Shown here: positions 8,364 through 56,387 of the stretch, piece by piece
Numbering within the stretch: position 1 is the stretch's first letter
Layout of the letters: each line of letters opens with the position of its first letter
Assembly: GCA_035541055.1 (NCBI GenBank)
Contig: DATKNZ010000401.1
Location: 3,743-67,742 of the forward strand
Reading direction: 5' to 3'
DNA length: 64,000 bases
Source: Candidatus Acidiferrum sp.
Lineage (GTDB): Bacteria; Verrucomicrobiota; Verrucomicrobiia; Limisphaerales; UBA8199
Translations under genes and position numbers: made by a program
Notes under the pieces: generated by a model
Databases searched by the model: none
What the model saw: the letters and a program-made list of their open reading frames with translations, nothing else
What the model was told of the DNA's origin: nothing

Positions 8364-10766
8364 ATGAAGACGTATCTACTTGTCATCCCCACCATCCTCC
8401 TCCTGTCCGCTTTGGCCGCACCCGGCCAGGGCACGATGGTTTATGACCAACAGAGTGCCACGAACAGAAGCTTCTACGCGGGTTATCCGTTTCAGGCGGA
8501 GCAACCTGCGGGCCAGTCCTTTACGCCCGCACTTAACACCGTCGGGTTCGTTCAGTTCGAGTTCATTGCCCCCTCTCCAGGGGCTGGGCTGGGGGCGACT
8601 GTTTTCGTGAACTTGCGTTCTGATTCGCTGACCGGGACGATCCTGGACTCGACGGCGCCCGTGTTTATGCCAAACGGCTTTAACGGTATCACGAACTTCC
8701 TATTCAGCGCACCGGTCGCTGTTACCTCGGGAATAACCTATTACCTCCAGCCGGTGCTCCAGTCAGGCGACAGTTCTTGGGGCTTGGTCGCTGGCCCATT
8801 CAATTACTTAGGCGGAACGTTCTTCTTCAACGGAGCACCTAATCCCGACGCCTTTAATGCATGGTTTCGCGAGGGCACCTTCGTGCCCGAGCCAGCCTCG
8901 GGGCTGCTGATGCTGCTCGGTGCCGCCAGCCTCTTTTTTACTCGGCGGTTGGGGCGCTCGTGTTGCTTGGTGTCGCTTGTCGTTGGAGGCTCTCTGGCCG
9001 TCTGCACTACTAGGGCGGACACCGCCCAGACGGCGGCAGCCCCGAGCTATTATTCGGCCCAGCACCCGGAGTGGCCACCAGTGCCTACTCCGACCCCAGG
9101 CTGCGCCGCGGCGCCAATACACGGTAGGCCCGGGGACTGGCTAATGGCAGACCAAACTTATGACTACGCTGTCTCGGATGTGGCCCTGAGCATAGCCAGC
9201 CCGATGGGTTTAACGCCGAACGGCCCGTCGCCGCTGGACCACGGCACAGCGTTGTGGCTTGAGATCGAACAGCCGGTCTCGGGGAATGTTCCGGTTACAG
9301 CCCACAACGTGGATGGCTCACAATGGTTCCAGCTACTCAGCACGACCAACATCATGGCACACCCAGATTGGTCGGTAGAGGAGCAGGTCCAGCAACCTGC
9401 CAGTACCGACCTGCCTTTGATCGTCCCGGAGAATGGTCGGCCTAACGTGTCCTTTCGGGCGGCGCAGTCCGATACGCTGATGTCCGTAAGCAGCGTGGGT
9501 AATGTCCTAAGGCCCAACGATTGCTACTCAAGCCAGCCGAGCTATTTCAACATCCAGCGCAGTTACGCTTCGTCAGGTTCCTATCCGCCCTTACAGGTCT
9601 GGTATTGCGTTGGCGGCACAGCTACTAATGGCGTGGATTACACGTATCTGGATGGCTCTGCCACGTTGCCGAGCGGTGCGAGCTCATACCAGATCAAAGT
9701 TGATGCCCTCCCGAGTCTCGTAACTTCAAACCTCACCCTCGTCCTGACACTGGTGGCCACCAACGGCTACCTTGTGGACTCGAATGGGCCTTCGGCGACG
9801 ATGATCATTGGGGCGAATCGGTTCGGGGCAGTGGCCGAGCTTGATTGGCAGGCCAATGGGCTGGATTACGATCCTCAAAGCCAGTCACTGGTAGTATCCG
9901 AGGAAACCCAATATCCCCCTTACCATAATTTCCTGCGGATTGATGCCAGCGGGGTGAATCCGTGGCTGGACGTGTCGGGCCTATGGGAAGAGGTCTCGCT
10001 GGCCATCGTGAAGACGAGCGCCAATGGCTTCACCCTGGGGGACATGTACTTTGATAGTTCCAGTTGGCCGAATAACCAGCCTACCAACCCACGCATCGGC
10101 TGGGCATCCGGGGGCAATGTGGTGCCCGACTGGGTGACCCTCCCTCCGCCAGCCTCGCCGCTGGGAGGGCTGTATGTGGACCAGACCGGCGTGTTCGGCG
10201 GGGACCTGATTGCGACGGCAGGAGGCGACGAGGACGCTTCCGGCACCGACGGGCGGGTGTGGCGGATTAACTCGTCAGGCCAGGTCACGCTGGTGACTAA
10301 CACGGGGACGCCTTTGGGCGGCGTGATCACGGTCACGAACGACGCGGCGCCATGGGGGCCATGGGCAGGCAAGATTCTCACCGGCCAGGGGCAGGAGTGG
10401 CCCTGGCCCAGCGACCCGGAGATTTACGCCATAGATACCAACGGGCAGGCGACAACGTATTACCTGGGGATTGAACCCGAGCACTTCAATTTCATTCCTG
10501 CCAACCAGTCCTTCTACTGCGTCGGTCCTGATACTTGGAACCGATGGCAGGTTTGGAAGGTGCCGGCCTCCGTGTTCACCGGGCATGTCGGCGATCTGCT
10601 CATCACGGGCATAGGGGACCCGGCGAGTGGGCGGCTGGGGCTGTTTATGGTGCATTGGGACGCCGGGACGACTAACTTTGTTATCCAGCAGATTGCCGCG
10701 CCGCTCGGCCTTGTGATGGACCTGGAGGAGGGCACGTTCGCGCCCATTGAGCTTCCGTGTCTCTGA
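8364..10766 (+). CDS. Secreted protein with an internal PEP-CTERM sorting motif, followed by a Calx-beta-like module and a beta-propeller-like C-terminal region
   Basis: 800-aa ORF. Signal peptide 'MKTYLLVIPTILLLSALAAPGQG'. A PEP-CTERM tag (VPEP + hydrophobic helix + RR) lies at aa 174-195 instead of the C-terminus. Calx-beta-like 'VGGTATNGVDYTYLDGSATLPSGASSYQIKV'. Confidence 0.8.
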   Translation: MKTYLLVIPTILLLSALAAPGQGTMVYDQQSATNRSFYAGYPFQAEQPAGQSFTPALNTVGFVQFEFIAPSPGAGLGATVFVNLRSDSLTGTILDSTAPVFMPNGFNGITNFLFSAPVAVTSGITYYLQPVLQSGDSSWGLVAGPFNYLGGTFFFNGAPNPDAFNAWFREGTFVPEPASGLLMLLGAASLFFTRRLGRSCCLVSLVVGGSLAVCTTRADTAQTAAAPSYYSAQHPEWPPVPTPTPGCAAAPIHGRPGDWLMADQTYDYAVSDVALSIASPMGLTPNGPSPLDHGTALWLEIEQPVSGNVPVTAHNVDGSQWFQLLSTTNIMAHPDWSVEEQVQQPASTDLPLIVPENGRPNVSFRAAQSDTLMSVSSVGNVLRPNDCYSSQPSYFNIQRSYASSGSYPPLQVWYCVGGTATNGVDYTYLDGSATLPSGASSYQIKVDALPSLVTSNLTLVLTLVATNGYLVDSNGPSATMIIGANRFGAVAELDWQANGLDYDPQSQSLVVSEETQYPPYHNFLRIDASGVNPWLDVSGLWEEVSLAIVKTSANGFTLGDMYFDSSSWPNNQPTNPRIGWASGGNVVPDWVTLPPPASPLGGLYVDQTGVFGGDLIATAGGDEDASGTDGRVWRINSSGQVTLVTNTGTPLGGVITVTNDAAPWGPWAGKILTGQGQEWPWPSDPEIYAIDTNGQATTYYLGIEPEHFNFIPANQSFYCVGPDTWNRWQVWKVPASVFTGHVGDLLITGIGDPASGRLGLFMVHWDAGTTNFVIQQIAAPLGLVMDLEEGTFAPIELPCL
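8883..8960 (+). other. PEP-CTERM (exosortase-type) sorting signal located internally in the ORF
   Basis: Encodes 'VPEPASGLLMLLGAASLFFTRRLGRS'. This is the canonical VPEP motif, transmembrane helix and basic cluster. No stop codon follows and the reading frame continues for about 600 more codons. Confidence 0.8.
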
Positions 10767-14518: not shown

Positions 14519-14530
14519 GGTCCTAAGGGC

Positions 14531-14746
14531 GAACGCCGAAGCCCGAAGACCGAGAGAAGGCCGAAGACCGAAACCCGAAGCAGTCAGCCGGCAGACCAGC
14601 GATGCGGGGCCGTCGGGAGTCTCCACGATAGCGAGACAGGTTAAGGCACAGTGTTCTCCAACGCTTCGGCTGGCCATGTGGACGGTGGCGGCTCCGGGCT
14701 TCGGACTTCGGGCCTCGGTCTTCGGGTTTCCCCCGACCTTCGGACT
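14531..14746. repeat. CCGAAGG-heptamer inverted-repeat element, copy A
   Basis: The left arm (14531-14580) is made of degenerate CCGAAG(G/C/A) heptamers. The right arm (14693-14746) is the complementary CTTCGG array. It shares 'AACCCGAAGCAGTCAGCC' with copy B. It fills the spacer between the ATP-grasp and alpha-E genes. Confidence 0.85.
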
Positions 14747-19368: not shown

Positions 19369-19411
19369 GTGGCACGCAGCGTGTACCCAGCGGGGACGAG
19401 AGGGGGCCGCT

Positions 19412-19607
19412 AAATCCGAACGCCGAAGCCCAAAGTCCGCAAGAAGGCCGAAGGCCAAAACCCGAAGCAGTCAGCCCGCTGACATCCATTGTGAGGCGCT
19501 CGGGGATTAACTTCTTAGTGGGACAGCCTGGCTGCAGCTTTCCTCAACGCCTCGCCCTGGCACAGGCGGGAGCGACTTCGTCCTTCGGGGTTCGGCCTTC
19601 GGATCTC
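19412..19607. repeat. CCGAAGG-heptamer inverted-repeat element, copy B
   Basis: Left arm 19412-19467 (AATCCGAACGCCGAAGCCCAAAG...GAAGGCCGAAGGCCAAAACCCGAAGCAGTCAGCC). Right arm 19574-19607 (CTTCGTCCTTCGGGGTTCGGCCTTCGGAT). Confidence 0.8.
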
Positions 19608-31920: not shown

Positions 31921-32075
31921 TCCATGGCTACCTTCAAAACGCCGCTACGCGGTGCCGAACGTCACTTGTACGAACAATTCGGTCGCGTGCCCGGCTACGT
32001 TGCCCGCCCCAGTTCCATCTGGCCTGGCCCACGGTTACGGGCTAAGCTGACGCCCTTGAGTTCCTAGTCCACCGT

Positions 32076-33371
32076 ATGCGAGGCCGGCTGAACACATTTC
32101 AACTGAGCATGTTGGAGTGGAACGACCTGCACCCGTATAACGCCGTCCATGTGGTGCGCGTCCGGGAGGTGCTGGATCGGCCACGCCTGGAAGCGGCCAT
32201 CGCGCGCACCCTCGAACGGCGCGGCCTGATGGGCCTCGTGCTGGACCGCCACGCAAGGACCTACCAGTACCAAGGCGGGCCGGCTTCCGTTGAACTCCGG
32301 GTTTGCGACGCCGGGCCAGGCTGGTCGCCGGCGTTTGCGCAGGAGATCGAGCGCGAGCTGAATCAGCCTTTCGCGCACGCCGGCTCTTGCAACCCGTTCC
32401 GGTGCGTCGTGCTACCCGAAGGGGACGCCTTCTCCCTGGCGCTGGCCTACTTCCACCCGGTGGCGGACGCGCACAGCATAGTTTTCCTGCTAAAGGACAT
32501 CGTGGACGAATACCGGGGCGGTGCGGACGCCGCTCCGGAGGCAGTGCCCCGAAGCGACCCCGGGTGCGGCGATTCCCTGCTGCGCTCCCATCCCAGCGTG
32601 GTGGCCCGGAAGCTGGCCTCGCTCCCGGCGTCCGTGGCGCAGATGCGCCATTCATGCCGGCCCAATTACCGGGACCCCGCCGACTTCCATAATGGGCTCA
32701 CTCTGTTCACTCTCGGCGCGGAGGCTCTGCGGCGGGTCGTGAGGACGGCCAAGGCCCTTGAAGTCACAGTCAACGACCTGTTCCTGGCCCTGCTGATGCA
32801 GGCGGTATCGCAGATCGCGCCCAAGCGGACGCGCGCCGACCGGCGCAGAAACCTTACGCTGGGCTGCATCGTGAACACGCGCAAAGATCTCGGACGCGAC
32901 AGCGGCGGGGACTTCGGCCTGCACCTGGGCTCGTTCTTCGTGCACCACGAGGCACCGGCCGGCATCGCGCTGGCCGACCTTGCGCGGGACATTGGCGGGC
33001 AGACGCGCCGGATAAAGCAAAGCCGGCTTTACTTAGGGGCCGGCGTCGAACTAACGTTGGGGCGGCTGCTGATGTCCTTGTTCGCGGAGCACCGCAGGAA
33101 GAAGCTCTATCAGAAGCATTACCCGTTATGGGGCGGATTGACCAATATGAACCTGAACGCGCTCTGGCCACAGCCCGAGGGCGCCCGGGCCGTGGACTAC
33201 GTGAGGGCGGTCTCGACCGGTCCGGTAACCCCGCTGGTGGTTTCCGTAACCACGATAGGCGCGGTGGCCAATGTCACTGTGACCTACCGCTCGACGGTGT
33301 TCGCGGCGCCCGAGATCGAGCGCCTGAAGGCGTGCTTTCTCGAACCGGCGGGACTCCTGGCCACCGCGTGA
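32076..33371 (+). CDS. Stand-alone condensation-domain-like (HxxxD) acyltransferase
   Basis: The ~430-aa size and 'LALAYFHPVADAHSIVFLL' (HxxxD catalytic-type motif) fit the condensation / PapA5 / WS-DGAT superfamily. The assignment is tentative. Confidence 0.55.
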   Translation: MRGRLNTFQLSMLEWNDLHPYNAVHVVRVREVLDRPRLEAAIARTLERRGLMGLVLDRHARTYQYQGGPASVELRVCDAGPGWSPAFAQEIERELNQPFAHAGSCNPFRCVVLPEGDAFSLALAYFHPVADAHSIVFLLKDIVDEYRGGADAAPEAVPRSDPGCGDSLLRSHPSVVARKLASLPASVAQMRHSCRPNYRDPADFHNGLTLFTLGAEALRRVVRTAKALEVTVNDLFLALLMQAVSQIAPKRTRADRRRNLTLGCIVNTRKDLGRDSGGDFGLHLGSFFVHHEAPAGIALADLARDIGGQTRRIKQSRLYLGAGVELTLGRLLMSLFAEHRRKKLYQKHYPLWGGLTNMNLNALWPQPEGARAVDYVRAVSTGPVTPLVVSVTTIGAVANVTVTYRSTVFAAPEIERLKACFLEPAGLLATA

Positions 33372-33415
33372 GCGCGGGCGGCCTACAGGGGCAGCCGTTT
33401 GCGCTTGTAGGCCGC

Positions 33416-34501
33416 GTGCCCTCACGCGGCGCACGGAGCGCGCACGCTTTGCCACTCCTCGCGCTGGCTTCCGCCCTGCTGCTCTCGGGCTGCGGCAAAT
33501 TCCACCGCCAGGGCCTCGAGGCCGCCCGGCTGCAACAGGCCGAGCACGACTATGCAGGCCGGACCCTGCGCCTTTCTCCGGAACTGGAGGACAAGATCCT
33601 GGCCCTGAACCCCGCCCAAGTCACCACGCAAGACGTGCGGGAGGTGCTCTCGCACGCCCCGGCGCCGCGGATCATCAGCATTCATGGCGGCGTGGCGCGG
33701 GTCATTCCGCACATGATCTCGTTTGCGGACCTGCTCATTGGCCTGGGCTATCCGGCCGGCAGCCTCACCAATCCCAATGATGGCACCTACAGCTTTAGCT
33801 GCTATGAGAGCAGCGAGCGCATCGCGGGCATGGTCGCCTGGTTTTACGAGAAAGAGGGTCTGCGGCCCATGCTGATCGGGCACAGCCAGGGCGGCATGCA
33901 GGTGGTGAAGGTGCTGGACAAGCTCGCCCGCAACCCCGATCACCCGCTGCATGTATGGAGTCCGCTGACCTGGAAACCCGAGGAGCGCACCGAGATTGTG
34001 GACCCGGTGACCGGCCAGCGCCGGCCGGTAGTGGGCCTGACGCTTCCCTACGCCTCGTCGGTTGGCGCCGGGGGAGCCACCCGCATTCTGCCGAACCAGT
34101 GGGATATGAGCTTCCGCCTGCACACGATTCCCAACACGGTGGAGGAATTCACAGGCTACTGCAAAGGCTGGGACTTCACAGGCGGCGACTTGCTGGGCTA
34201 CGGCTCGATCAACCTTTACCGCGCCAGCGGCACGGCGGTGGTCCGCAACGTCTGGCTGCCGTCCGCCTACCGGCACGGCTACGTGCCCGAGACGAAACAC
34301 CTGCTGGCGGACCCGCGCCTGGTGGATTGGATCAACAATTACCGCCCGAGCCCGGCGGCGGTGTCCCGCCCAACGTTCGATCTCAAAGTTGATTCGAATA
34401 CCAGGAACATCATCTGGGCGGCGGATGTGTGGTACAGCATCAAGAAGCATTGGGTGCTGGAACTGCAGCGCCTCATACGGGCGCAGCGCGCGGGCAGATG
34501 A
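33416..34501 (+). CDS. Lipoprotein alpha/beta-hydrolase (lipase/esterase-type)
   Basis: An in-frame GTG at 33416 gives a signal peptide with the lipobox 'LLALASALLLSGC'. Nucleophile elbow 'MLIGHSQGGMQVV'. The track ORF start (33128) overlaps the previous gene and is unlikely. Confidence 0.65.
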   Translation: MPSRGARSAHALPLLALASALLLSGCGKFHRQGLEAARLQQAEHDYAGRTLRLSPELEDKILALNPAQVTTQDVREVLSHAPAPRIISIHGGVARVIPHMISFADLLIGLGYPAGSLTNPNDGTYSFSCYESSERIAGMVAWFYEKEGLRPMLIGHSQGGMQVVKVLDKLARNPDHPLHVWSPLTWKPEERTEIVDPVTGQRRPVVGLTLPYASSVGAGGATRILPNQWDMSFRLHTIPNTVEEFTGYCKGWDFTGGDLLGYGSINLYRASGTAVVRNVWLPSAYRHGYVPETKHLLADPRLVDWINNYRPSPAAVSRPTFDLKVDSNTRNIIWAADVWYSIKKHWVLELQRLIRAQRAGR

Positions 34502-35154
34502 CACTCGGGCTCAACAGGGCGGTCGTATTCGGCTCGGGCGCGGTCTATTGGGCGGGCGTTGTCGTGCAGGCGCGCCGCGTGCGCCGGCATACTGGCAAGT
34601 CCACCAACACGCGTCCACGCAACACGAAAGAGCGCCTGCTATGGGCGGGATGGTTCTGCGTCGTGGTGTGCTGGCTGGCCCTGCCCTTCCTTAGCATGGT
34701 GAAGCCCGCTTTGCCCGGCGTCGCGGTGCTCGCGAACCTGGCGCAACCCGTCGGGCTGGCGGTCGGGACCCTCCTCATGGTCGCCGGTTACCTGGGCACG
34801 CTCTGGTGCTATGCCGCTATGGGCAACGCCTGGCGGATGGGAATCAACCGGGCCGAGACACCTGACCTCGTGACGCGCGGCCCCTATCGCCTGGTGCGTC
34901 ACCCGATCTACTTCTTCCAGGTCCTCATGGTTGCGGCCATTGCGTTGCTGCTGCCTTCACTGCTGGCCTGTGTCGTTCTCGTCGTCCATCTCGTCTGCGT
35001 GCGCGTTAAGGCGGCAGACGAGGAGAGCCATCTGCGGGCCCTTCTCGGAAAGACCTACGAGAGCTATTGCGCGCAGACCGGGGCCTGGCTTCCCCGGCTG
35101 CGGCGCCATGCGCCTCCGGAGGCGCTTCCCTCACCTGAGCATTCCCTCAAATGA
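34498..35154 (+). CDS. ICMT/PEMT-type integral-membrane methyltransferase
   Basis: It is a multi-transmembrane protein with 'TRGPYRLVRHPIYFFQVLMVAAIALL', the signature region of isoprenylcysteine carboxyl / phospholipid methyltransferase-like families. ATG 34498 overlaps the upstream stop (ATGA). Confidence 0.7.
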   Translation: MTLGLNRAVVFGSGAVYWAGVVVQARRVRRHTGKSTNTRPRNTKERLLWAGWFCVVVCWLALPFLSMVKPALPGVAVLANLAQPVGLAVGTLLMVAGYLGTLWCYAAMGNAWRMGINRAETPDLVTRGPYRLVRHPIYFFQVLMVAAIALLLPSLLACVVLVVHLVCVRVKAADEESHLRALLGKTYESYCAQTGAWLPRLRRHAPPEALPSPEHSLK

Positions 35155-35942
35155 ACGACCCAGCTACAGCGGCACCCCAGCAGACAAGCGGCCAGCCCCT
35201 GGCGGGCAAAATCGCGCTGGTCACCGGCGGCTCGCGCGGCATCGGGCGAGCCATCGCGTTGAAACTGGCGGGCGCCGGCAGCGACGCCGTCATTATCTAC
35301 CATAACAGCCATGAGGAAGCCGAAGCTGTGTGCACCACGATCCACGAGCTGGGCCGGCGGGCGCAGGCGTTCCAAGCGGACGTCAGTGAACCGGAGCTGG
35401 TCTCTGAAGTCGTCGGCTCAGTGCGCGAGCAGTTTGGTCGCGTGGACATCCTCGTCAGCAATGCGGCGGTCGGCGTGCTGCGGCCGGTGCTCGAACTCTC
35501 GCTCAAGCACTGGCGCCGCTGCCTCGAAACCAACGCGCTCGCACTGAACCTCCTGGCGCAGCAGGTCGTGCCGATCATGCCCCCCGGCGGACGCATCATT
35601 GCCATCTCCAGCCTCGGCGCCTGGCGGGCGATCCCGCAATACGCCTTCATCGGCGCCTCAAAGGCGGCCCTGGAAAGCCTGGCCCGCAGCCTGGCGCAGG
35701 AACTCGGCCCGCGCGGCATCCGCGTCAACGTGATCAGCGCCGGGGTGGTGGACACCGATGCGCTGAAGTATTTCCCCAACCGCGAGCAACTGCTGGCCGA
35801 ATTCGGGCGCCGCGCCCCGGCCGGGCCGACGCTCACCGCCGAGGACGTCGCCGGAGCCGTTTACTTGCTTTGTCTGCCCGAAGCGGGCATGATAACAGGT
35901 CAAACCCTGGTAGTTGACGCAGGGTACTGTATATCCGGATGA
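35151..35942 (+). CDS. SDR-family reductase, FabL-like enoyl-ACP reductase candidate
   Basis: 'IALVTGGSRGIGRAIA' (cofactor motif), 'ISSLGAWRAIPQYAFIGASKAALE' (S...YxxxK), and 'NAAVGVLRPVLELSLKHW' and 'DTDALKYFPNRE', which resemble FabL as I recall it. ATGA overlap with the upstream gene. Confidence 0.65.
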   Translation: MNDPATAAPQQTSGQPLAGKIALVTGGSRGIGRAIALKLAGAGSDAVIIYHNSHEEAEAVCTTIHELGRRAQAFQADVSEPELVSEVVGSVREQFGRVDILVSNAAVGVLRPVLELSLKHWRRCLETNALALNLLAQQVVPIMPPGGRIIAISSLGAWRAIPQYAFIGASKAALESLARSLAQELGPRGIRVNVISAGVVDTDALKYFPNREQLLAEFGRRAPAGPTLTAEDVAGAVYLLCLPEAGMITGQTLVVDAGYCISG

Positions 35943-36697
35943 CCAGCCCGAATGTATCGGACGCCGGCCTGAGTGGCGGGGTTGCAATCGTCACCGGCGG
36001 CAGCCGCGGCATTGGGCGGGCCATCGTTAAGTTGCTCGCCGCGTCGGGCATGGAAGTGGTGCTGACATTCCGGGAGAACTCGACCGCGGCGGCAGAAGTG
36101 GCCGCATCCGGCCCGAAGATCACCGCCGAAGCGCTAGACGTCCGGGAAGCCGCGGCCTGTTCCGCGCTGGTCGAGAAAGTGGCGGACCGGGCGGGGCGGA
36201 TTGACCTGCTGGTCAACAACGCCGGGGTGATCCGGGACAACCCGCTGACGGCGCTGGAAGATGACGACCTGCGCGTGGTACTGGAAACGAACGCGCTCGG
36301 CGCGATGAACATGGCCCGCGCCGTCGCGCCGCACATGGTGGCGGCCCGCAAAGGCAAGATTATTAACATCAGCTCGGTGTCCGGTGAGAAAGGCGGCCGC
36401 GGGCAGACCAACTACGCCGCGAGCAAGGGCGCCGTGAACGCGTTCACACGCGCGCTGGCCGTCGAGCTGGCCCCCCGCGGCATCACGGTCAATGCCGTGG
36501 CGCCGGGTGTGGTTGACACCGAGATGTCGCGCGAGGTGCGCGAGCGGGCCGGCGACGCGGTGCTGTCGCGCGTCCTGCTGCGGCGCATCGGCACGCCAGC
36601 GGACGTGGCGTACGCGGTCTGGTTCCTGGCCTCGCGGTATGCCGATTACATCACGGGCGAAATCGTGCACGTGGATGGCGGATTTAAAATGGAATAG
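35939..36697 (+). CDS. 3-oxoacyl-ACP reductase (FabG-like SDR)
   Basis: 'VAIVTGGSRGIGRAI', 'NNAGVIRDN', 'ISSVSGEKGGRGQTNYAASKGAV' and 'ITVNAVAPGVVDTEM'. ATGA overlap with the upstream gene. Confidence 0.85.
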   Translation: MTSPNVSDAGLSGGVAIVTGGSRGIGRAIVKLLAASGMEVVLTFRENSTAAAEVAASGPKITAEALDVREAAACSALVEKVADRAGRIDLLVNNAGVIRDNPLTALEDDDLRVVLETNALGAMNMARAVAPHMVAARKGKIINISSVSGEKGGRGQTNYAASKGAVNAFTRALAVELAPRGITVNAVAPGVVDTEMSREVRERAGDAVLSRVLLRRIGTPADVAYAVWFLASRYADYITGEIVHVDGGFKME

Positions 36698-36698
36698 C

Positions 36699-37142
36699 AT
36701 GAACAACTCAGAGATCACGAAAGATGAGATCATGGCAGTGTATCCGAAGATTGCGGAGATCATCGCCGCGGCGCTGCCGTGCGAAGTGGAGAAGGTCAAG
36801 CTGGAAGCCTCGCTCATAGACACGCTGGGCGCCCAATCCATTGACTTCCTGGACATCGTCTTCCGCCTGGAGCGGGCGTTCAAGGTGAAGATCCCGCGCG
36901 GCAAGATCGTCGAGGAGGCCCGGGGCAGCCTCTCGCAAGCCGAGTTCGAGCAGGCCGGCGTGGTGACCCCCGCCGGGCTGGCGCGGTTGAAGGAGTTTCT
37001 CAGGGAAGTGCCGGCCGAGCGGTTCCCTTCACCGCTCAAGGTGGCCGACATCCCGCGCCTGTTCACGACCGAGACCTTCTGCAAGATCGTTGTGAGGCAG
37101 CAGCGGACCGGCGCCGCCACCCCCGCGCCCGCAACCGCCTGA
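36699..37142 (+). CDS. Acyl carrier protein with a ~60-aa C-terminal extension
   Basis: 'LEASLIDTLGAQSIDFLDIVFRLERAF' is a phosphopantetheine-attachment helix II (Ser in GAQSID). The ATG lies 1 nt after the FabG-like stop. At 147 aa it is longer than typical ACPs of about 80-90 aa. Confidence 0.75.
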   Translation: MNNSEITKDEIMAVYPKIAEIIAAALPCEVEKVKLEASLIDTLGAQSIDFLDIVFRLERAFKVKIPRGKIVEEARGSLSQAEFEQAGVVTPAGLARLKEFLREVPAERFPSPLKVADIPRLFTTETFCKIVVRQQRTGAATPAPATA

Positions 37143-37160
37143 GCGAGCGCGGCAGCTCCG

Positions 37161-38009
37161 ATGGGCCGCATGGACGCACACTTCCGCGCCTTCTCCTTCG
37201 TGGATCGGCTTACCTGCGTTGAGCCGGGCCGGCGCGTCCGGGGCCGCTATGCCATTCCGGCGGGCCTGGGCCATTTTCCGCTGTCGCTCGTTGGCGAGGC
37301 CGTGGGCCAGTTGGCGGCGTGGGCGGCCATGGCGGCGGCGGATTTCAAGCATCGGCCCGTAGCCGGCCTGGCGGGCCGCATCGAACTGCTCCAAGACACT
37401 GCTCCCGGGCAGGTGGTCGAACTGGCAGCCGATGTCGAAAGCGTGGACGCCGAAAGCGTGCAGTATAGCGGCGAGGCGCACGCCAATGGCACCCCGGTCA
37501 TCCGGCTGACGGATTGTGTGGGGCCGATGATGCCGGTGAGCGACTTTGATGACCCCGAGGCTCTGCGAGCGCGGTTCGGGGCCCTGCAAGGCCAACCCGC
37601 CGCTAACGGCAGCTTTCCCGGGCTGCCTGAGCTGGCGTTCCAGCGTACCGGCGGGGAGCGCGGGCAACGTGTCACGGCGAGTTTCCGGGTCCCATCCCAG
37701 GCACCTTTCTTCGCGGACCACTTTCCGCGCCGTCCCGTCTTTCCGGGCAGCTTGTTGATGCATATCAACTTGCAGCTTGGCGCGGCGCTGGCTGCCGAAC
37801 TCCCGCCGCCCGCTCACCGGCGCTGGCTGCCGGCGACCATACAGGACATGAAGCTGCGCTCGTTCATAGCGCCAGGCACCAGCCTGCTGCTGGAAGCGCG
37901 GCTGAAGCAGCACGCGCAAGACTCTGTCTGCCTGGCGCTGGAGACCCGGGCGGGCAATGACCTGATTGCGACCGCGCGGCTGCTGCTGCGGGCGGGAGGC
38001 GAACGGTGA
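37161..38009 (+). CDS. Double-hotdog 3-hydroxyacyl-ACP dehydratase (FabZ/FabA-like C-terminal half)
   Basis: 'FFADHFPRRPVFPGSLLMHINLQL' matches the HFPxxPxxPG active-site region of FabZ/FabA. The N-terminal ~140 aa look like a second, degenerate hotdog fold. Confidence 0.75.
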   Translation: MGRMDAHFRAFSFVDRLTCVEPGRRVRGRYAIPAGLGHFPLSLVGEAVGQLAAWAAMAAADFKHRPVAGLAGRIELLQDTAPGQVVELAADVESVDAESVQYSGEAHANGTPVIRLTDCVGPMMPVSDFDDPEALRARFGALQGQPAANGSFPGLPELAFQRTGGERGQRVTASFRVPSQAPFFADHFPRRPVFPGSLLMHINLQLGAALAAELPPPAHRRWLPATIQDMKLRSFIAPGTSLLLEARLKQHAQDSVCLALETRAGNDLIATARLLLRAGGER

Positions 38010-38043
38010 GGCAACCCGACCGTGACCGTGGAATCCCGCAGCA

Positions 38044-38270
38044 AAATCCGAAGGCCCAAACCCGAAGGCCGAAAGAAGGCCGAAGGCCGAAGCCCGAAGG
38101 CCCCGGTGTCATTGCCATGGTGAGCGCCGATCGCTTGGGAGTGCAGTGTTCACGCAGCCTGGCCCTGGGGTCAGTTTCCGCCCGTACCAAGTGCGCGGGT
38201 AGCCGCCCAGCGGGTTCGGGCTTCGGATTTCGGCCTTCTTTCGGGCTTCGGCCTTCGGGCTTCGGATTTC
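38044..38270. repeat. CCGAAGG-heptamer inverted-repeat element, copy C (inside the lipid operon)
   Basis: Left arm 38044-38102 (AATCCGAAGGCCCAAACCCGAAGGCCGAAAGAAGGCCGAAGGCCGAAGCCCGAAGG). Right arm 38212-38270 (GGTTCGGGCTTCGGATTTCGGCCTTCTTTCGGGCTTCGGCCTTCGGGCTTCGGATT). Confidence 0.9.
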
Positions 38271-38313
38271 AGCCGCTACTCTCGCGGCCACCGAAAACAC
38301 GGAGGGACATCGC

Positions 38314-39612
38314 GTGAGCGCGCGTCGCAGGGTTGGCATCACCGGCATCGGCATGGTCACGCCGGTAGGCGGAGATGCGCCGACAACCTGGTCGAGCCTC
38401 CTGGCCGGGCATAGCGGCATTGCGCCCATTGGCCAGTTCGATGCCGGCGGGTTCCCCGTGCGGATTGGGGCCGAGGTCAAACACGTGCCCGACGATCCGG
38501 AGCTGTGCGACCCCAAGCTGCGCAAGTTCACGTCCCGCTCGCACCGGTTTGCCCTGGCTGCCGCCCGGGAGGCGCTTGCCGACGCGGGCATCGGCCCCAC
38601 TCCGGCCACCAGCCACCGGTGGGGCCTGAGCGTCGGCGCCGGCATGCTGGGCGTCACGTTTGACGAATTGCAGACCGTCCACTCCTTCTGCGCGCGCGAT
38701 GGCGAGTTCCATGCGGACGGCTTGTTGGACCCCGGCTTCCCTGCCGACCCGGTGGCGTTCTGCCGTGGGCAGACCAACGCCGGCCTGGGCTTGCTGGCAC
38801 GGCAATTCGGCATCACCGGCTATGCGACTTCCGTTCACACCGCCTGCGCTTCGGGAGGGCAAGCCGTCGGCACTGCCCTCAAGGTGATGCGTCGCGGGGC
38901 GGCGGACTTCATGCTCGCGGGCGGCTACGATTCCATGCTGCACCCGATTGGCTTGTCGGGCTTTTGTCTGCTCGGCGCGCTGTCCACGGACAACGAGACA
39001 CCGGAACGGGCGAGCCGCCCGTTTGACCTCACCCGAAACGGTTTCGTGTTGGGCGAAGGCGCCGGGTTCCTGGTGTTGGAGGAATGGCAGGCCGCGCGGG
39101 CCCGCGGCGCGCGCATTTATGCCGAACTGGCCGGCGAAGGCAACTCCCTAAGCAGCTACCGCATAACGGATTCACACCCTTCGGGCGATGGACCGATCCA
39201 GGCCATGCAGCAGGCGCTGGCTGATGCCGGCCTGACGCCCGAGTCGGTGGATTACGTCAACGCGCACGGCACCTCGACCGCGATGAACGACCGCAGTGAA
39301 TGTGCCGCCCTCCGCGCGGTCATGGGGGCACACGCCGGAAAGGTGGCGGTCAGCTCGACCAAGGGCTGCATGGGCCACCTGATTTCGGCGGCGGGCGCCG
39401 TCGAGGCGGGCATTTGCGCGCTGGCCATCCGCAACAGCGTGGCCCCTGTGAACGCCAACCTGGTCCAGGTTGACCCGGAGTGCAATTTGAACATCGTGCG
39501 GTGCGAATCGCGACCGGTGCGCATTGGCGTGGCCATATCGAACTGCTTCGGCTTCGGCGGCTCGAACAACTGCCTGGTGTTCCGGAGCCCGGATGGGGCC
39601 CGAGGGACCTGA
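38314..39612 (+). CDS. Beta-ketoacyl-ACP synthase (FabF/KAS II-like), copy 1
   Basis: GTG start preceded by GGAGGG. Cys-His-His triad contexts 'VHTACASGGQAVG', 'VNAHGTSTAMND' and 'KGCMGHLISAAGAVE'. Confidence 0.9.
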   Translation: MSARRRVGITGIGMVTPVGGDAPTTWSSLLAGHSGIAPIGQFDAGGFPVRIGAEVKHVPDDPELCDPKLRKFTSRSHRFALAAAREALADAGIGPTPATSHRWGLSVGAGMLGVTFDELQTVHSFCARDGEFHADGLLDPGFPADPVAFCRGQTNAGLGLLARQFGITGYATSVHTACASGGQAVGTALKVMRRGAADFMLAGGYDSMLHPIGLSGFCLLGALSTDNETPERASRPFDLTRNGFVLGEGAGFLVLEEWQAARARGARIYAELAGEGNSLSSYRITDSHPSGDGPIQAMQQALADAGLTPESVDYVNAHGTSTAMNDRSECAALRAVMGAHAGKVAVSSTKGCMGHLISAAGAVEAGICALAIRNSVAPVNANLVQVDPECNLNIVRCESRPVRIGVAISNCFGFGGSNNCLVFRSPDGARGT

Positions 39613-39629
39613 GCCATAGCCACTCGGTT

Positions 39630-39789
39630 CAAACCACAGATGGACACAGATAGACACAGATTCGAAAGGCCGGAATCGGATGCTCGTGAGGCGGTGTCGC
39701 CTTCAGCGGGCAGCGGGCTGGGCCCGATCCTAGCCGCGCCAGGATTGAGCGCCCTGCATCTGTGTTCATCTGTGTCCATCTGTGGTTTT
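39630..39789. repeat. AAACCACAGATGGACACAGAT terminal-inverted-repeat element (~160 bp)
   Basis: CAAACCACAGATGGACACAGATAGACACAGATT (39630-39662) pairs with GCATCTGTGTTCATCTGTGTCCATCTGTGGTTTT (39756-39789). It is translated on both strands in the track as '...ICVHLWF...' and '...HRWTQMNTD...'. Confidence 0.9.
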
Positions 39790-39829
39790 CGTCCGCATGG
39801 ATTGGGTTAACCCGCCTCCACTCGCCTTC

Positions 39830-41110
39830 ATGGAACCCACACCGCGCATCGCCATCACCGGGCTGGGAGCGGTCTGCGGTGCCGGGCTGGGCGTCGAGGC
39901 CATTTGGAACCGCGTCCTGAGCGGCAAGTCGGCCGTGGCCCCGATCACGCAATGGGATGCCAGCCGCTGGCCGGTGAAGCAGGCCGCCGAGATCACGGGA
40001 ATCTCCAACAGCACGCTCTTGCCGGACCGCAAGTACCACAAGTTCCTCTCGCGGACCGACCTGTTCGGACTGTATGCCGCGGACGCCGCGATCCAGCGGT
40101 CGGGCCTGCTCGCGTATCGTGATGGCTTGGAGCCGGATGCGACAGCGGCCTTCAACGACCGCAGCGCGGTCTACGTCGGCTCGGGTGGTTGCGCCTACTA
40201 TTACAACTATGACTTTTTCCCGGCCTACTCTGCCGCCGGGGGCGATCTCAGGGCCTTTGGGCGCGAGTTCGAGTCATGCGTGAACCCGATGTGGCTGCTG
40301 ACCCGCCTGCCCAACAATGTCCTTTGCTACATCGGCATCCGCTATTCGTTCAAGGGGACCAACGCCTGCATCACTAACCAGTGCGTGGGCGGGTCGGTGG
40401 CCCTTGCCGAGGCCGCGGCGGCTATCCGCGTTGGCGATGCCGACCGCGCCGTCGCTACGGGGCACGACGCCGCCATCGAGCCGGAGACAGTGCTCCGCTA
40501 CCACCAGCTCGGGCTGCTGTCGCAGAACGGGCTGCGGCCGTTTGATCGCGCGCGCAGCGGCACGGTCTTCGGCGAAGGCGCCGCCAGCCTTGTGCTCGAG
40601 CGCGAGGCGGACGCACGGGCGCGGCGGGCGCAGTTGATCGGCGAGTTCCTGGGTTCCGGCTGCACCACGGAAGCGAGCGGCATTACCTCGGTGCGCCCGG
40701 ACGGCGACGGGCTGAGCCGGGCGATTGGACTCGCGCTGGCCGACGCCGGCGTTTCACCCGGCCAGGTGGGCCTCGTCGTGGCGCACGGGAATGGGACCCT
40801 GACGTCCGATGCCTCGGAGGCCGTCGCCATCCGGCGCGTGTTTGGAGATTCGCCTCCGCCGATCACCGCTTTCAAGTGGGCGGTGGGCCATACGATCGCT
40901 GCTTCCGGCGTGCTCGATGTAGCTCTCGCCCTCACCGCACTGAGACAGGGGATTGTGCCTGGCATCGCCACGTTGGAATGCCTGGACCCCCAGCTCGCGC
41001 CGCTGCCGGTTTCGGCGGCGCCGCAACCGCCGCGCAGCGACATCGCCCTGGTGCTGAGCCGCGGCTTCGCGGGCATGAATGTGGCGCTGCTGGTCCGGGC
41101 CGTGCGATGA
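39830..41110 (+). CDS. Beta-ketoacyl-ACP synthase-like, copy 2 (divergent partner KS)
   Basis: 'RIAITGLGAVCGAG', 'ITNQCVGGSVALAEA' (Cys retained in an atypical context), 'VVAHGNGTLTSD' and 'KWAVGHTIAASGVLD'. I chose the start at ATG 39830. The track start 39782 lies inside the repeat element. Confidence 0.8.
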   Translation: MEPTPRIAITGLGAVCGAGLGVEAIWNRVLSGKSAVAPITQWDASRWPVKQAAEITGISNSTLLPDRKYHKFLSRTDLFGLYAADAAIQRSGLLAYRDGLEPDATAAFNDRSAVYVGSGGCAYYYNYDFFPAYSAAGGDLRAFGREFESCVNPMWLLTRLPNNVLCYIGIRYSFKGTNACITNQCVGGSVALAEAAAAIRVGDADRAVATGHDAAIEPETVLRYHQLGLLSQNGLRPFDRARSGTVFGEGAASLVLEREADARARRAQLIGEFLGSGCTTEASGITSVRPDGDGLSRAIGLALADAGVSPGQVGLVVAHGNGTLTSDASEAVAIRRVFGDSPPPITAFKWAVGHTIAASGVLDVALALTALRQGIVPGIATLECLDPQLAPLPVSAAPQPPRSDIALVLSRGFAGMNVALLVRAVR

Positions 41111-42351
41111 GCCGGGGCTCCAGGGAGCTGCCCGGGCCGGGCCTGGATACGGTCGAGCTGGGCCGCATCGAACGGCTGCTGGCCGAGAGCGACTCGCAGG
41201 ACGTCGGGCGCCTCTTTACGGAGGCCGAGCTGAAAGACGCCGGCGAGGGGCCGCAACGCGTTCCCCGGCTCGCAGCTCGCTTCGCCGCCAAGGAAGCCTG
41301 CTGCAAGCTCTTCCCGCGGGAATTGGCCCTCGGCATGATCGGCCCCGCCGATTTCTCGGTTCGGCGCGACGCCTACGGCGCGCCCCGCGTCGAGGTAAGC
41401 CGTGACGCGCAATACGTGCTCGACCGCCGCTGCCTCGCAGGCATCAGCGTTTCACTGACGCACACCGATGCCAGCGCGTCGGCAATTGCGACGGCTCAGC
41501 CGCGGATGATTGACGTCCCGTGGTTTGGCCGGATGCTGTATCATCTGGCGCCCTTTCGCCGGCGAGTCGTGCTGGACAACCTGCGCCGCGTGTTCGGCGA
41601 CGTGCTCGGGGAGGAGGACATCCAGCGGCTGGCCCAGGCTTACTGCGCCCATTTCGCCCGGTTCCTGGTCGAGTTTGCGCGGATGCCCTTCATGTCCGAT
41701 GCGCGGCGAAAGGCCTGGGTCCGGGTCGAGAACGCGGAGTCCGCCATCCGCGCACAGGCGCAAGGCAAGGGCCTGTTGCTGCTGACCGGGCACTTTGGCA
41801 ACTGGGAAGTCGCTACGGTTATCGGCATGCGCCAGTTCCCGCAGTATCGTGGCGCGCTTCACGTCGTGCGCCGCCCGCTCAAGCCCGCGTTGCTTAACGC
41901 TTTTGTCAACCGCAGGTTCCAGCGGTCGGGCTTCGGCACCCTGCCCAAGCGTGGCTCGCTCCAAGTTATCCTGGACCTGCTCGCCGAAGGCGCGGTCCTG
42001 GTCTATGTGCTCGACCAGCACGCGGGTGGCAACGACGGGGTCGTCGTGGACTTCCTGGGCCAACCTGCCGGCACGTTCAAGAGCCTGGCAGTGCTCGCCC
42101 TTCATACCGGGGCGCCGGTCGTTCCAGTCTGCGGCTGGCGAGAGCCCGATGGCCGGCATGTCCTGCGGTTCGAGGACCCGGTGCCGCTGATCGAGTGCGA
42201 CGATCCCGGCGAGGCCATCCGCCGCAACACTCAGAGCTACAGTACGGCCCTGGAACGCATGCTCCTGCGCCACCCCGAGCAGTGGATCTGGATGCACCGC
42301 CGCTGGAAGGCCGCCGCCGCCAGCCAAGTCACCCCTGCTCCAGCTAGCTAG
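41107..42351 (+). CDS. Fusion: AcpS-type 4'-phosphopantetheinyl transferase + LpxL/HtrB-type (lipid A biosynthesis / lysophospholipid) acyltransferase
   Basis: The N-terminal ~125 aa carry 'LDTVELGRIERLL', 'RLAARFAAKEACCKL' and 'ISVSLTHTDASASAIA' (AcpS hallmarks). The remainder carries 'VVLDNLRRVFG' and 'LLLTGHFGNWE' (HX4-acidic acyltransferase motif). ATG 41107 overlaps the KS2 stop (ATGA). Confidence 0.75.
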   Translation: MSRGSRELPGPGLDTVELGRIERLLAESDSQDVGRLFTEAELKDAGEGPQRVPRLAARFAAKEACCKLFPRELALGMIGPADFSVRRDAYGAPRVEVSRDAQYVLDRRCLAGISVSLTHTDASASAIATAQPRMIDVPWFGRMLYHLAPFRRRVVLDNLRRVFGDVLGEEDIQRLAQAYCAHFARFLVEFARMPFMSDARRKAWVRVENAESAIRAQAQGKGLLLLTGHFGNWEVATVIGMRQFPQYRGALHVVRRPLKPALLNAFVNRRFQRSGFGTLPKRGSLQVILDLLAEGAVLVYVLDQHAGGNDGVVVDFLGQPAGTFKSLAVLALHTGAPVVPVCGWREPDGRHVLRFEDPVPLIECDDPGEAIRRNTQSYSTALERMLLRHPEQWIWMHRRWKAAAASQVTPAPAS

Positions 42352-56162: not shown

Positions 56163-56254
56163 GCGGGCGCCGCAGCGTCTTGGAGTGCGCCAGCCCTCTG
56201 GCGCTCCCGTGCACACCGGCCCGTCTTCGGTCAGAGCTCTTGGCATAATTCCAC

Positions 56255-56387
56255 CCAAATCCGAAGGCCGAAGGCCGAAGCCCGAAAGAAGGCCGAACTA
56301 CGCAATCCGAGGGCGCCAGTGTGGTGCGTTCGAGCCTCGGATTTCGGCCTTCCTTCGGCCTTCGGATTTCGGCCTTCGGATTTGGGC
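56255..56387. repeat. CCGAAGG-heptamer inverted-repeat element, copy D
   Basis: CCCAAATCCGAAGGCCGAAGGCCGAAGCCCGAAAGAAGGCCGAA (56255-56298) pairs with CCTCGGATTTCGGCCTTCCTTCGGCCTTCGGATTTCGGCCTTCGGATTTGGG (56335-56387). Confidence 0.9.

Follow-up and report, generated by a model that had tools for sequence, protein, structure and literature searches.

A gene encoding an AcpS-type 4′-phosphopantetheinyl transferase (PPTase) fused to an acyltransferase of the Lip_A_acyltrans family was identified at positions 41107 to 42351 of a 64,000-nucleotide stretch of contig DATKNZ010000401.1 (assembly GCA_035541055.1, Candidatus Acidiferrum sp., GTDB phylum Verrucomicrobiota; hereafter the window), and the existence of this fusion gene was confirmed. 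The gene closes an operon that encodes a dedicated acyl carrier protein (ACP) and a set of fatty acid elongation enzymes. We consider it probable, at roughly 60%, that the product is a bifunctional enzyme completing a self-contained cassette, in which it would prime the ACP of the cassette and then transfer the finished acyl chain to an acceptor, the likeliest being lipid A or a lipid A precursor. This reading builds on observed features: the identity of the two domains, their intact catalytic residues, the conservation of both the fusion and the cassette, and the occurrence of unfused and AcpS-less versions.

Domain structure and distribution of the fusion protein

The fusion gene and its parts were delimited as follows.

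41107..42351, + strand: fusion gene, AcpS-type PPTase and Lip_A_acyltrans-family acyltransferase, 414 aa, last gene of the operon
41140..41502, + strand: AcpS domain, aa 12-132, placed by Pfam, NCBIfam, alignment with solved AcpS enzymes and Foldseek
41503..41520, + strand: short junction, aa 133-138, leading into the conserved helix 'PWFGxxLYHLxPFRR'
41521..42315, + strand: acyltransferase domain, aa 139-403, with the HX4E motif formed by H229 and E234

The initial annotation had described a single 414-codon open reading frame (ORF) carrying both domains. This was borne out: the ORF ends in TAG after 414 codons, and Pfam detected PF01648 (ACPS; aa 12-101, 35.7 bits against a gathering threshold of 25, E 9.9e-9), so that the N-terminal segment does match an AcpS profile, as well as PF03279 (Lip_A_acyltrans; aa 140-401, 155.8 bits against 22.3, E 1.8e-45). 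The ATG and the stop codon TGA of the preceding ketosynthase gene share the sequence ATGA at 41107-41110; start/stop overlaps of this type are the usual sign of translational coupling within an operon. An alternative in-frame GTG at 40876 would extend the protein to 491 aa; since it would overlap the ketosynthase gene by 235 nt, and the homologues begin within about 10 residues of G12, position 41107 was taken as the best start. The NCBIfam AcpS models covered aa 10-128 and the lipid A acyltransferase models aa 139-411. All NCBIfam equivalog cutoffs were missed by both halves, and only the generic PPTase domain model TIGR00556 was passed, as a borderline match (45.9 versus 45.35). The helix that follows the junction also forms the N-terminus of unfused acyltransferases. 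An AlphaFold2 model of the fusion built on 51 sequences had a mean pLDDT of 81 and a pTM of 0.78, with the AcpS domain (aa 12-132) at a pLDDT of about 90. Thus, the identities of both domains are supported by profile, by match to solved structures and by predicted fold. No two-domain protein was among the solved relatives.

The AcpS hallmarks proposed for the N-terminal part were all present, namely LDTVELGRIERLL (aa 13-25), RLAARFAAKEACCKL (aa 54-68) and ISVSLTHTDASASAIA (aa 113-128). When aligned with solved enzymes, D14 (41146-41148), E63 (41293-41295) and K67 (41305-41307) corresponded to D9, E58 and K62 of Escherichia coli AcpS, with D14 falling on the residue mutated in entry 5XUH, and H119 (41461-41463) corresponded to H110 of Streptomyces coelicolor. 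We take R20 to be the equivalent of the ACP-contacting Arg14 in the Bacillus subtilis AcpS-ACP complex. Residues D14, R20, K62, E63, K67 and H119 were invariant in an alignment of 51 sequences and at least 98% conserved in one of 195, and G12 was likewise invariant or at least 98% conserved in the two. Foldseek comparison of the predicted N-domain with the AcpS enzymes of Vibrio cholerae, E. coli and Neisseria meningitidis gave target-normalised TM-scores of 0.80-0.85 (the best, 0.85, being to V. cholerae and E. coli), and the domain also matched the phosphopantetheinyl transferase (PPT) domain of fungal fatty acid synthase (FAS). The N-domain therefore has the family profile, the D/E/K catalytic set and the single alpha/beta domain of about 120 aa that characterise AcpS. 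It is approximately 30% identical to the solved housekeeping AcpS enzymes, and it scored below the cutoff of the acpS equivalog TIGR00516 (47.9 versus 59.8).

In the C-terminal half, the acyltransferase motif LLLTGHFGNWE was found at aa 224-234, as initially annotated. H229 (41791-41793) and E234 (41806-41808) aligned with H122 and E127 of Acinetobacter baumannii LpxM, such that E234 lies on the alanine of the LpxM E127A mutant entry 5KNK. H229 and E234 were invariant among the 51 sequences; together with G228, G231 and N232 they were invariant or at least 98% conserved in the 51- and 195-member alignments. The predicted C-domain had target-normalised TM-scores of 0.78 to PatA and 0.62 to LpxM, with nearly equal query-normalised values (0.48 and 0.49, respectively). 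On the basis of their residues, both halves look catalytically alive.

Other unusual arrangements were encountered in the acyltransferase family. Tandem double Lip_A_acyltrans proteins of about 585-650 aa (P0136, P0143, P0168, P0174, P0197 and P0217) are another unexplored fusion in this family. In P0132, a protein of 361 aa, an ACPS domain spans aa 5-92 and a further segment, aa 211-357, matches aa 13-162 of the window protein; either a tandem AcpS or a misassembly may account for this. P0131, P0141 and P0148, unfused relatives without the helix, occur in unrelated contexts and are uninformative on the cassette.

The architecture had not been recognised from characterised systems in the initial annotation. 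In agreement, a literature search for the domain pair, or for a PPTase in clusters for very-long-chain fatty acids (VLCFAs), found no paper, and no characterised member was found. In public sequence data, by contrast, the architecture is abundant and has been annotated by machine, with automatic names that cover one half only ('4'-phosphopantetheinyl transferase superfamily protein' or 'KDO2-lipid IV(A) lauroyltransferase'). The protein database search that had been proposed for this architecture recovered both Pfam domains in 120 of the 120 best protein clusters (drawn from JGI, ENA, Logan and NCBI; 66-76% identical, 383-439 aa). Relatives were present in at least 566 species-level genomes when one genome per GTDB species was scanned, and 78 of the 80 best genome loci gave matches that began no later than residue 14 and reached at least residue 391, thus across both domains. 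A search of PLSDB plasmid proteins returned no record spanning the two domains. The carriers included Verrucomicrobiota (Limisphaerales, Chthoniobacterales and Verrucomicrobiales/Akkermansiaceae), Burkholderiales (especially Casimicrobiaceae), NC10, Binatia and Margulisiibacteriota, as read from record titles of which some are unreliable ('Akkermansia muciniphila' or 'Bifidobacterium' on environmental metagenome-assembled genomes, MAGs). The possibility that a missed stop codon or a frameshift had joined two genes was excluded and is given a negligible probability: the continuous two-domain ORF recurs in hundreds of independent assemblies, the identical protein is encoded on two separately assembled contigs (a k141 contig of ENA ERZ27256510 and Logan SRR8879131), and the truly split versions, which are only 38% identical, differ in having a TAA stop and then a separate ATG.

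The exact protein is named 'MAG TPA: 4'-phosphopantetheinyl transferase superfamily protein' at NCBI, where its source is labelled 'Candidatus Acidoferrum sp.' (Acidobacteriota). The closest genome loci, with 60-87% identity over the whole cassette, are all from Verrucomicrobiota, and giant Ig/cadherin/LamG proteins in the window fit this phylum; the Acidobacteriota label of the bin may be wrong.

The cassette in the window and in other genomes

The fusion gene is the last of an 11-kb operon on the + strand (32109-42351), which is bordered upstream by a divergent Fur-family gene and sufB and downstream by a convergent gene for a 1087-aa Ig/cadherin/LamG protein. Its other genes are listed below.

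32109-33371, + strand: condensation-domain-like protein, Pfam match over the N-terminal third only
33449-34501, + strand: 350-aa protein of no family, without Pfam, NCBIfam or PDB match
34498-35154, + strand: ICMT/PEMT-type membrane methyltransferase
35151..35942, + strand: short-chain dehydrogenase/reductase (SDR) related to FabL-type enoyl-ACP reductase (ER), NF005975 at 323.6 bits, just under the cutoff of 328
35939..36697, + strand: FabG-type 3-oxoacyl-ACP reductase (KR), NF009466 at 235 bits against a cutoff of 222, TIGR01830 at 253 bits
36699..37142, + strand: dedicated ACP, 147 aa, PF00550, the presumed substrate of both fusion domains
37161..38009, + strand: double-hotdog dehydratase (DH), 282 aa, ApeI-like N-terminal half (PF22818) and FabZ-like C-terminal half
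38314..39612, + strand: FabF-like ketosynthase 1 (KS1), Cys-His-His triad intact
39797..41110, + strand: ketosynthase 2 (KS2), divergent and FabF-like, Cys-His-His kept

The ACP that had been placed at 36699 proved to be a real gene. Its predicted phosphopantetheine attachment site is Ser47 (36837-36839) in the motif LGAQSIDFLD. The best solved relative was 2KW2, an AcpXL orthologue from Rhodopseudomonas palustris described as a 'specialized acyl carrier protein' (E 1.7e-8, versus 2.8e-6 for the next ACP), and the score on NF005079 was 43.8 against a cutoff of 83. A single-sequence AlphaFold2 model of the 147-aa protein was unusable (pLDDT 43.7). KS2 is not of the chain-length-factor type, because the Cys-His-His triad is retained. 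Judged by gene content, the cassette core encodes a full saturating elongation cycle together with a carrier, a primer and an off-loading enzyme.

This organisation was found to be widely conserved. Among the 60 related loci with at least 5.7 kb upstream of the fusion, the ordered core ER-KR-ACP-DH-KS-KS-fusion was present in 52, and several of the exceptions were frameshift-ridden long-read assemblies. The ACPs of the related loci had a median length of 143 aa, and all carried L-x-A-E/Q-S-I/V-D-F around the predicted attachment serine. The three head genes were less constant. Of the 51 related loci whose flanks were long enough, 31-33 contained any one of these genes, and the gene order varied; the versions from Verrucomicrobiales, NC10, Binatia and Margulisiibacteriota lacked them.

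The contigs of more distant helix-less acyltransferases, which share 37-42% identity with the C-domain, revealed two further states of the cassette, one with a separate AcpS gene and one without AcpS. Locus L093 (37% G+C) has the order SDR-SDR-ACP(136 aa)-DH(FabA + ApeI-like)-KS-KS-ACPS(125 aa)-Lip_A_acyltrans(292 aa), in which the separate ACPS gene sits exactly at the position of the fused domain. At L092, the ACPS and acyltransferase genes have overlapping stop and start codons, and at L081 an AcpS that follows the KS2 homologue ends in '...AVAIAE' and TAA, after which GAT ATG opens the acyltransferase. The stand-alone AcpS proteins of these unfused cassettes were 42-43% identical to the window N-domain, and all key residues were common to them. 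The AcpS-less state was detected in two Legionellales MAG contigs and in cultured Legionella donaldsonii as ACP(137)-DH(294-305)-KS-KS-acyltransferase(273-289), with a FabL-like SDR 2-5 kb upstream in L097 and L099. Compared with these Legionella clusters, the window proteins were 54-56% (ACP, full length), 56% (KS), 41-45% (KS2) and about 40% (acyltransferase) identical. The Legionellaceae acyltransferase has orthologues, 72-76% identical to it, in many named species (L. tunisiensis, feeleii, jamestowniensis, cardiaca, erythra, birminghamensis, rubrilucens and hackeliae, and Tatlockia). In a rough neighbour-joining tree, the adjacent-AcpS forms grouped with the Legionella clade. AcpS was also lacking from a close relative within the fused clade, a Pedosphaera MAG (L076) with a 290-aa acyltransferase; since this sequence was nested among fused Verrucomicrobiota sequences in the same tree, the absence looks like a secondary loss. 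Overall, some lineages have the primer as a built-in component of the cassette, either fused or separate, and others lack it.

Additional features of the operon and its relatives were recorded. The ACP is about twice the usual length, with a C-terminal extension of about 60 aa that is strongly conserved from Verrucomicrobiota to Legionella in a comparison that included the ACPs of L093, L095 and L099 (consensus …ARGxL…EFE…G..T..G…LK..L.E.PAE.F…KV..IP.L.T.ET.CK.VV). The methyltransferase at 34498-35154 weakly matched, at 30 bits, the Leptospira lipid A 1-phosphate methyltransferase LmtA. PDB sequence searches with the condensation-like and 350-aa accessory proteins gave no significant match. 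The G+C content of the operon (0.66-0.68 over 32001-42000) is 3-8 points above that of its flanks (0.62-0.63 at 28-32 kb and 0.60-0.63 at 42-50 kb), which is weakly compatible with horizontal acquisition. A scan of the operon for promoters and terminators performed no better than on shuffled sequence. A palindromic element of about 226 bp (38044-38269) lies in the 305-bp spacer between the dehydratase and KS1 genes (38010-38313); it has 55-nt terminal inverted repeats, 87% complementary, of CCGAAGGC-like short repeats, with related repeat matches near 14522-14590, 19379-19465 and 56221-56383. It looks like a small intergenic element of the miniature inverted-repeat transposable element (MITE) or repetitive extragenic palindromic (REP) type that was inserted in the operon. 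A 103-aa ORF at 38006..38317 was rejected as a gene, being conserved in no related locus and overlying the palindromic repeat. An analogous palindromic repeat (gtctaaagtccaaagtc ... gactttggactttggac) was noted at 9893-9997 of L076, in the spacer before the acyltransferase start at 9998 and exactly where the AcpS domain is missing. At a further locus in Verrucomicrobiota (L090, 4084-7396), a lone fusion gene adjoins a phage-type integrase and a HigB/helix-turn-helix toxin-antitoxin pair, which suggests that the fusion gene is able to move or to separate from the cassette.

Proposed function and alternative explanations

In the proposed mechanism, the AcpS domain would use CoA and Mg2+ to place a phosphopantetheine arm on Ser47 of the cassette ACP. 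Elongation of an acyl chain by the cassette enzymes would follow on the resulting holo-ACP, and the HX4E domain would then pass the completed chain from this carrier to a membrane glycolipid. The chain is expected to be long, saturated and possibly (omega-1)-functionalised. By analogy with LpxXL, the likeliest acceptor would be lipid A or a precursor, to which a secondary very long acyl chain would be added. The ACP as the substrate of both halves, as well as chain length and activity, we infer from sequence, and donor and acceptor from the cassette context. The logic of priming the ACP of the cluster and then unloading the same carrier, as put forward in the initial annotation, is supported by (i) the conservation of the cassette in 52 of 60 loci, (ii) the stand-alone AcpS in the same slot, and (iii) the invariance of the catalytic residues. 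With its own reductases and primer, the cassette would be independent of the host type II fatty acid synthesis and AcpS. We rate the system as a cassette of the VLCFA-lipid A type that was turned self-priming by fusing AcpS to the terminal acyltransferase, and not as a new principle.

Several observations weigh against the proposed transfer to lipid A by a self-primed cassette. The C-domain is nearer to PatA than to LpxM by phmmer E-value and target-normalised TM-score. Hydropathy analysis detected no N-terminal membrane helix on the acyltransferase half: PF03279 is matched from profile position 41 onwards, and hydrophobicity over 19-residue windows peaks (1.83, aa 284-302) in a predicted core beta-strand and helix. 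As the unfused relatives of about 290 aa likewise are without this helix, the acyltransferase half is assigned by sequence to a helix-less clade of the Lip_A_acyltrans family. The LpxL, LpxM, LpxP and PatA equivalog cutoffs were all missed (best NF006270, 136.9 versus 248; TIGR02207, 100.5 versus 297.8; TIGR02208, 47.7 versus 336); hence the original designation 'LpxL/HtrB-type' stands for PF03279 family membership and falls at the equivalog level, so that we use it as a family-level label only. Furthermore, L076 has no AcpS domain, which makes the fused primer dispensable in some genomes, and at L048 and L090 the fusion gene occurs without any cassette. All-against-all ORF clustering of 80 loci found nothing downstream of the fusion that more than 9 loci had in common, and no conserved gene that might point to the acceptor, in a data set cluttered by antisense shadow ORFs of high-GC DNA. 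The fusion proteins are known from sequence and predicted structure alone. Of the two comparisons drawn in the last section, the rhizobial one is a resemblance of organisation plus one modest sequence preference, and the assignment of the Legionella cluster to VLCFA synthesis is a correlation only.

Among the competing explanations, the least unlikely is that the protein and cassette are as described and that the acceptor is another membrane lipid, such as a glycolipid, lysophospholipid or aminolipid. PatA uses an acyl-CoA donor and acylates a mannolipid. It is the best match among solved structures in both sequence and fold, the missing membrane helix and the unmet LpxL threshold point the same way, and the presence of condensation-like and methyltransferase genes among the accessory ones gives a hint that the product is more elaborate. 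We nonetheless consider another acceptor unlikely: gene order and, it appears, ACP type match the lipid A VLCFA clusters (PMC5613085), the carrier phyla are all diderm, PatA and LpxM score equally when TM-scores are query-normalised, and the HX4E motif is that of LpxM whereas PatA has HX4D. That the cassette is instead an aryl-polyene-like or other reducing type II polyketide system, in which the acyltransferase anchors a polyene to a lipid, is brought to mind by the ApeI-like N-terminal half of the dehydratase (PF22818) and the pairing of the ketosynthases. Such a product is highly improbable because a FabL-like enoyl reductase belongs to the conserved core and the window annotation includes no ammonia lyase, adenylating enzyme, thioesterase, LolA/MMPL or glycosyltransferase; KS2, moreover, retains its active-site Cys and so is not a chain-length factor.

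Two further explanations concern the AcpS domain itself. It might be the general holo-ACP synthase of the cell, fused by chance and not specific to the cassette, as the solitary fusion genes of L048 and L090 could suggest. We hold this to be improbable, given that the fusion is tightly linked to the cassette at 52 of the 60 loci; its patchy distribution over unrelated phyla, its score below the acpS equivalog cutoff and its closer similarity to other cassette-borne AcpS genes than to housekeeping AcpS argue in the same direction. Alternatively, the domain may have ceased to be catalytic and serve the acyltransferase as a module for ACP docking or trimerisation. AcpS enzymes bind ACP and form trimers, AcpS-ACP complexes (1F80 and 5VCB) were among the Foldseek matches, and L076 and all Legionella versions do without the domain. 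The family-wide invariance of D14, E63 and K67 (Mg2+ binding and catalysis) and of H119 (CoA site) would be unexpected for pure docking and renders that role quite improbable; the unfused cassettes, in addition, retain a full-length stand-alone AcpS with the same residues.

If the bifunctional reading is correct, some speculative consequences follow. The cassette could be portable, in keeping with its patchy spread over phyla (52-60% identity), its non-conserved flanks and its raised G+C content. Fusion might guarantee the co-expression and co-location of carrier activation and unloading and, since AcpS enzymes are trimers, the acyltransferase would probably be trimeric too. In a bolder version, which we regard as doubtful, the AcpS trimer would bring three acyltransferase domains together as a membrane-peripheral 'prime-and-deliver' hub, which would keep hold of the dedicated ACP from activation to unloading and maybe load an acyl-phosphopantetheine starter directly from acyl-CoA; with its own ER and KR, the system would be a fully host-independent, horizontally mobile module that supplies uncultured bacteria, among them Verrucomicrobiota, Burkholderiales and NC10, with lipid A acyl chains that span the membrane.

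Comparison with known systems

If the proposed function holds, the cassette marks a very-long-chain lipid A modification in the style of Legionella and rhizobia in hardly cultured phyla, including Verrucomicrobiota, Casimicrobiaceae and other Burkholderiales, NC10, Binatia and Margulisiibacteriota, and it would provide a testable case and a marker for an outer-membrane trait in these poorly known groups. The series from fused to adjacent to absent AcpS would serve as a clean 'Rosetta stone', and it would imply that a dedicated AcpS-type primer can be required by, or of benefit to, specialised long ACPs of the cassette type. This has a bearing on attempts to express such pathways heterologously and on the question of which enzyme primes AcpXL-like carriers.

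The NCBIfam models that we take to represent rhizobial families were matched by the window proteins only below their cutoffs. In organisation, the cassette resembles the rhizobial VLCFA-lipid A cluster, acpXL-fabZXL-fabF2XL-fabF1XL-(adhA2XL)-lpxXL, of Rhizobium, Sinorhizobium, Bradyrhizobium and Agrobacterium, in which LpxXL receives a C28 chain from the specialised carrier AcpXL (PMC5613085, PMC11901934, PMC4402001). The core is alike in content and order, with an ACP that is specialised in rhizobia and putatively so in the window, a dehydratase, two FabF-like ketosynthases and a terminal Lip_A_acyltrans acyltransferase, and window positions 36699-42351 hold the co-oriented ACP-dehydratase-two KS-acyltransferase arrangement by which the acpXL-lpxXL cluster is defined (PMC5613085, PMC11901934). 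The AcpXL orthologue 2KW2, in addition to being the best solved relative of the window ACP, has the motif S(L/I)DFLD in common with it. The two clusters differ in that (i) the rhizobial one is without the FabL-like ER, FabG KR and acyltransferase-fused PPTase of the window; (ii) its alcohol dehydrogenase is absent from the window cassette; (iii) the window ACP has 147 aa, versus 101 aa in the solved chain 2KW2; and (iv) the window dehydratase is a double hotdog with an ApeI-like half. An LpxL-like match on Rhizobium tropici pRtrCIAT899c was dropped as a candidate lpxXL, with no ACP or KS genes nearby.

A closer counterpart was found in L. donaldsonii (GCA_900452385.1, L099), where the order is ACP(137 aa)-DH-KS-KS-acyltransferase(283 aa). 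This cluster and the window cassette look orthologous by sequence: the dehydratase has the same ApeI-like and FabA architecture, the identity of the ACPs includes the C-terminal extension, and a FabL-like SDR is nearby. Unlike the window cassette, this cluster lacks FabG as well as any AcpS gene or domain. Legionella is listed among the VLCFA producers (PMC11901934), and its lipid A contains (omega-1)-oxo, hydroxy and dioic acids in the C27-C30 range, including 28:0(27-OH), 28:0(27-oxo) and 30:0(29-oxo), with 27-oxo-28:0 found in every species of the genus that was studied (PMC7867332). No experimental tie between the Legionella cluster and 27-oxo-28:0 was found in the literature.

The acyltransferase half has PF03279 in common with LpxM (A. 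baumannii, 5KN7) and PatA (Mycobacterium smegmatis, 5F2T); its fold matches theirs and its HX4(D/E) motif aligns with theirs residue by residue, although identity is only 22-26%. LpxL and LpxM possess an N-terminal membrane helix, whereas the window domain has the AcpS domain in place of this anchor and resembles the peripheral membrane enzyme PatA in having no membrane helix. The AcpS half is of the same size and fold, with the same D/E/K set, as group I AcpS enzymes and the PPT domain of fungal FAS alpha subunits (2WAS/2WAT). Fungal FAS is the precedent here, with an AcpS-type primer joined to the machinery that carries the ACP it activates. There, however, the PPT domain is C-terminal, while the window domain is N-terminal and its partner is a single acyltransferase of a dissociated type II system. 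With the fungal megasynthase as the known precedent, the window protein would represent the first case of a type II system in which an AcpS-type PPTase is joined to a stand-alone tailoring enzyme.

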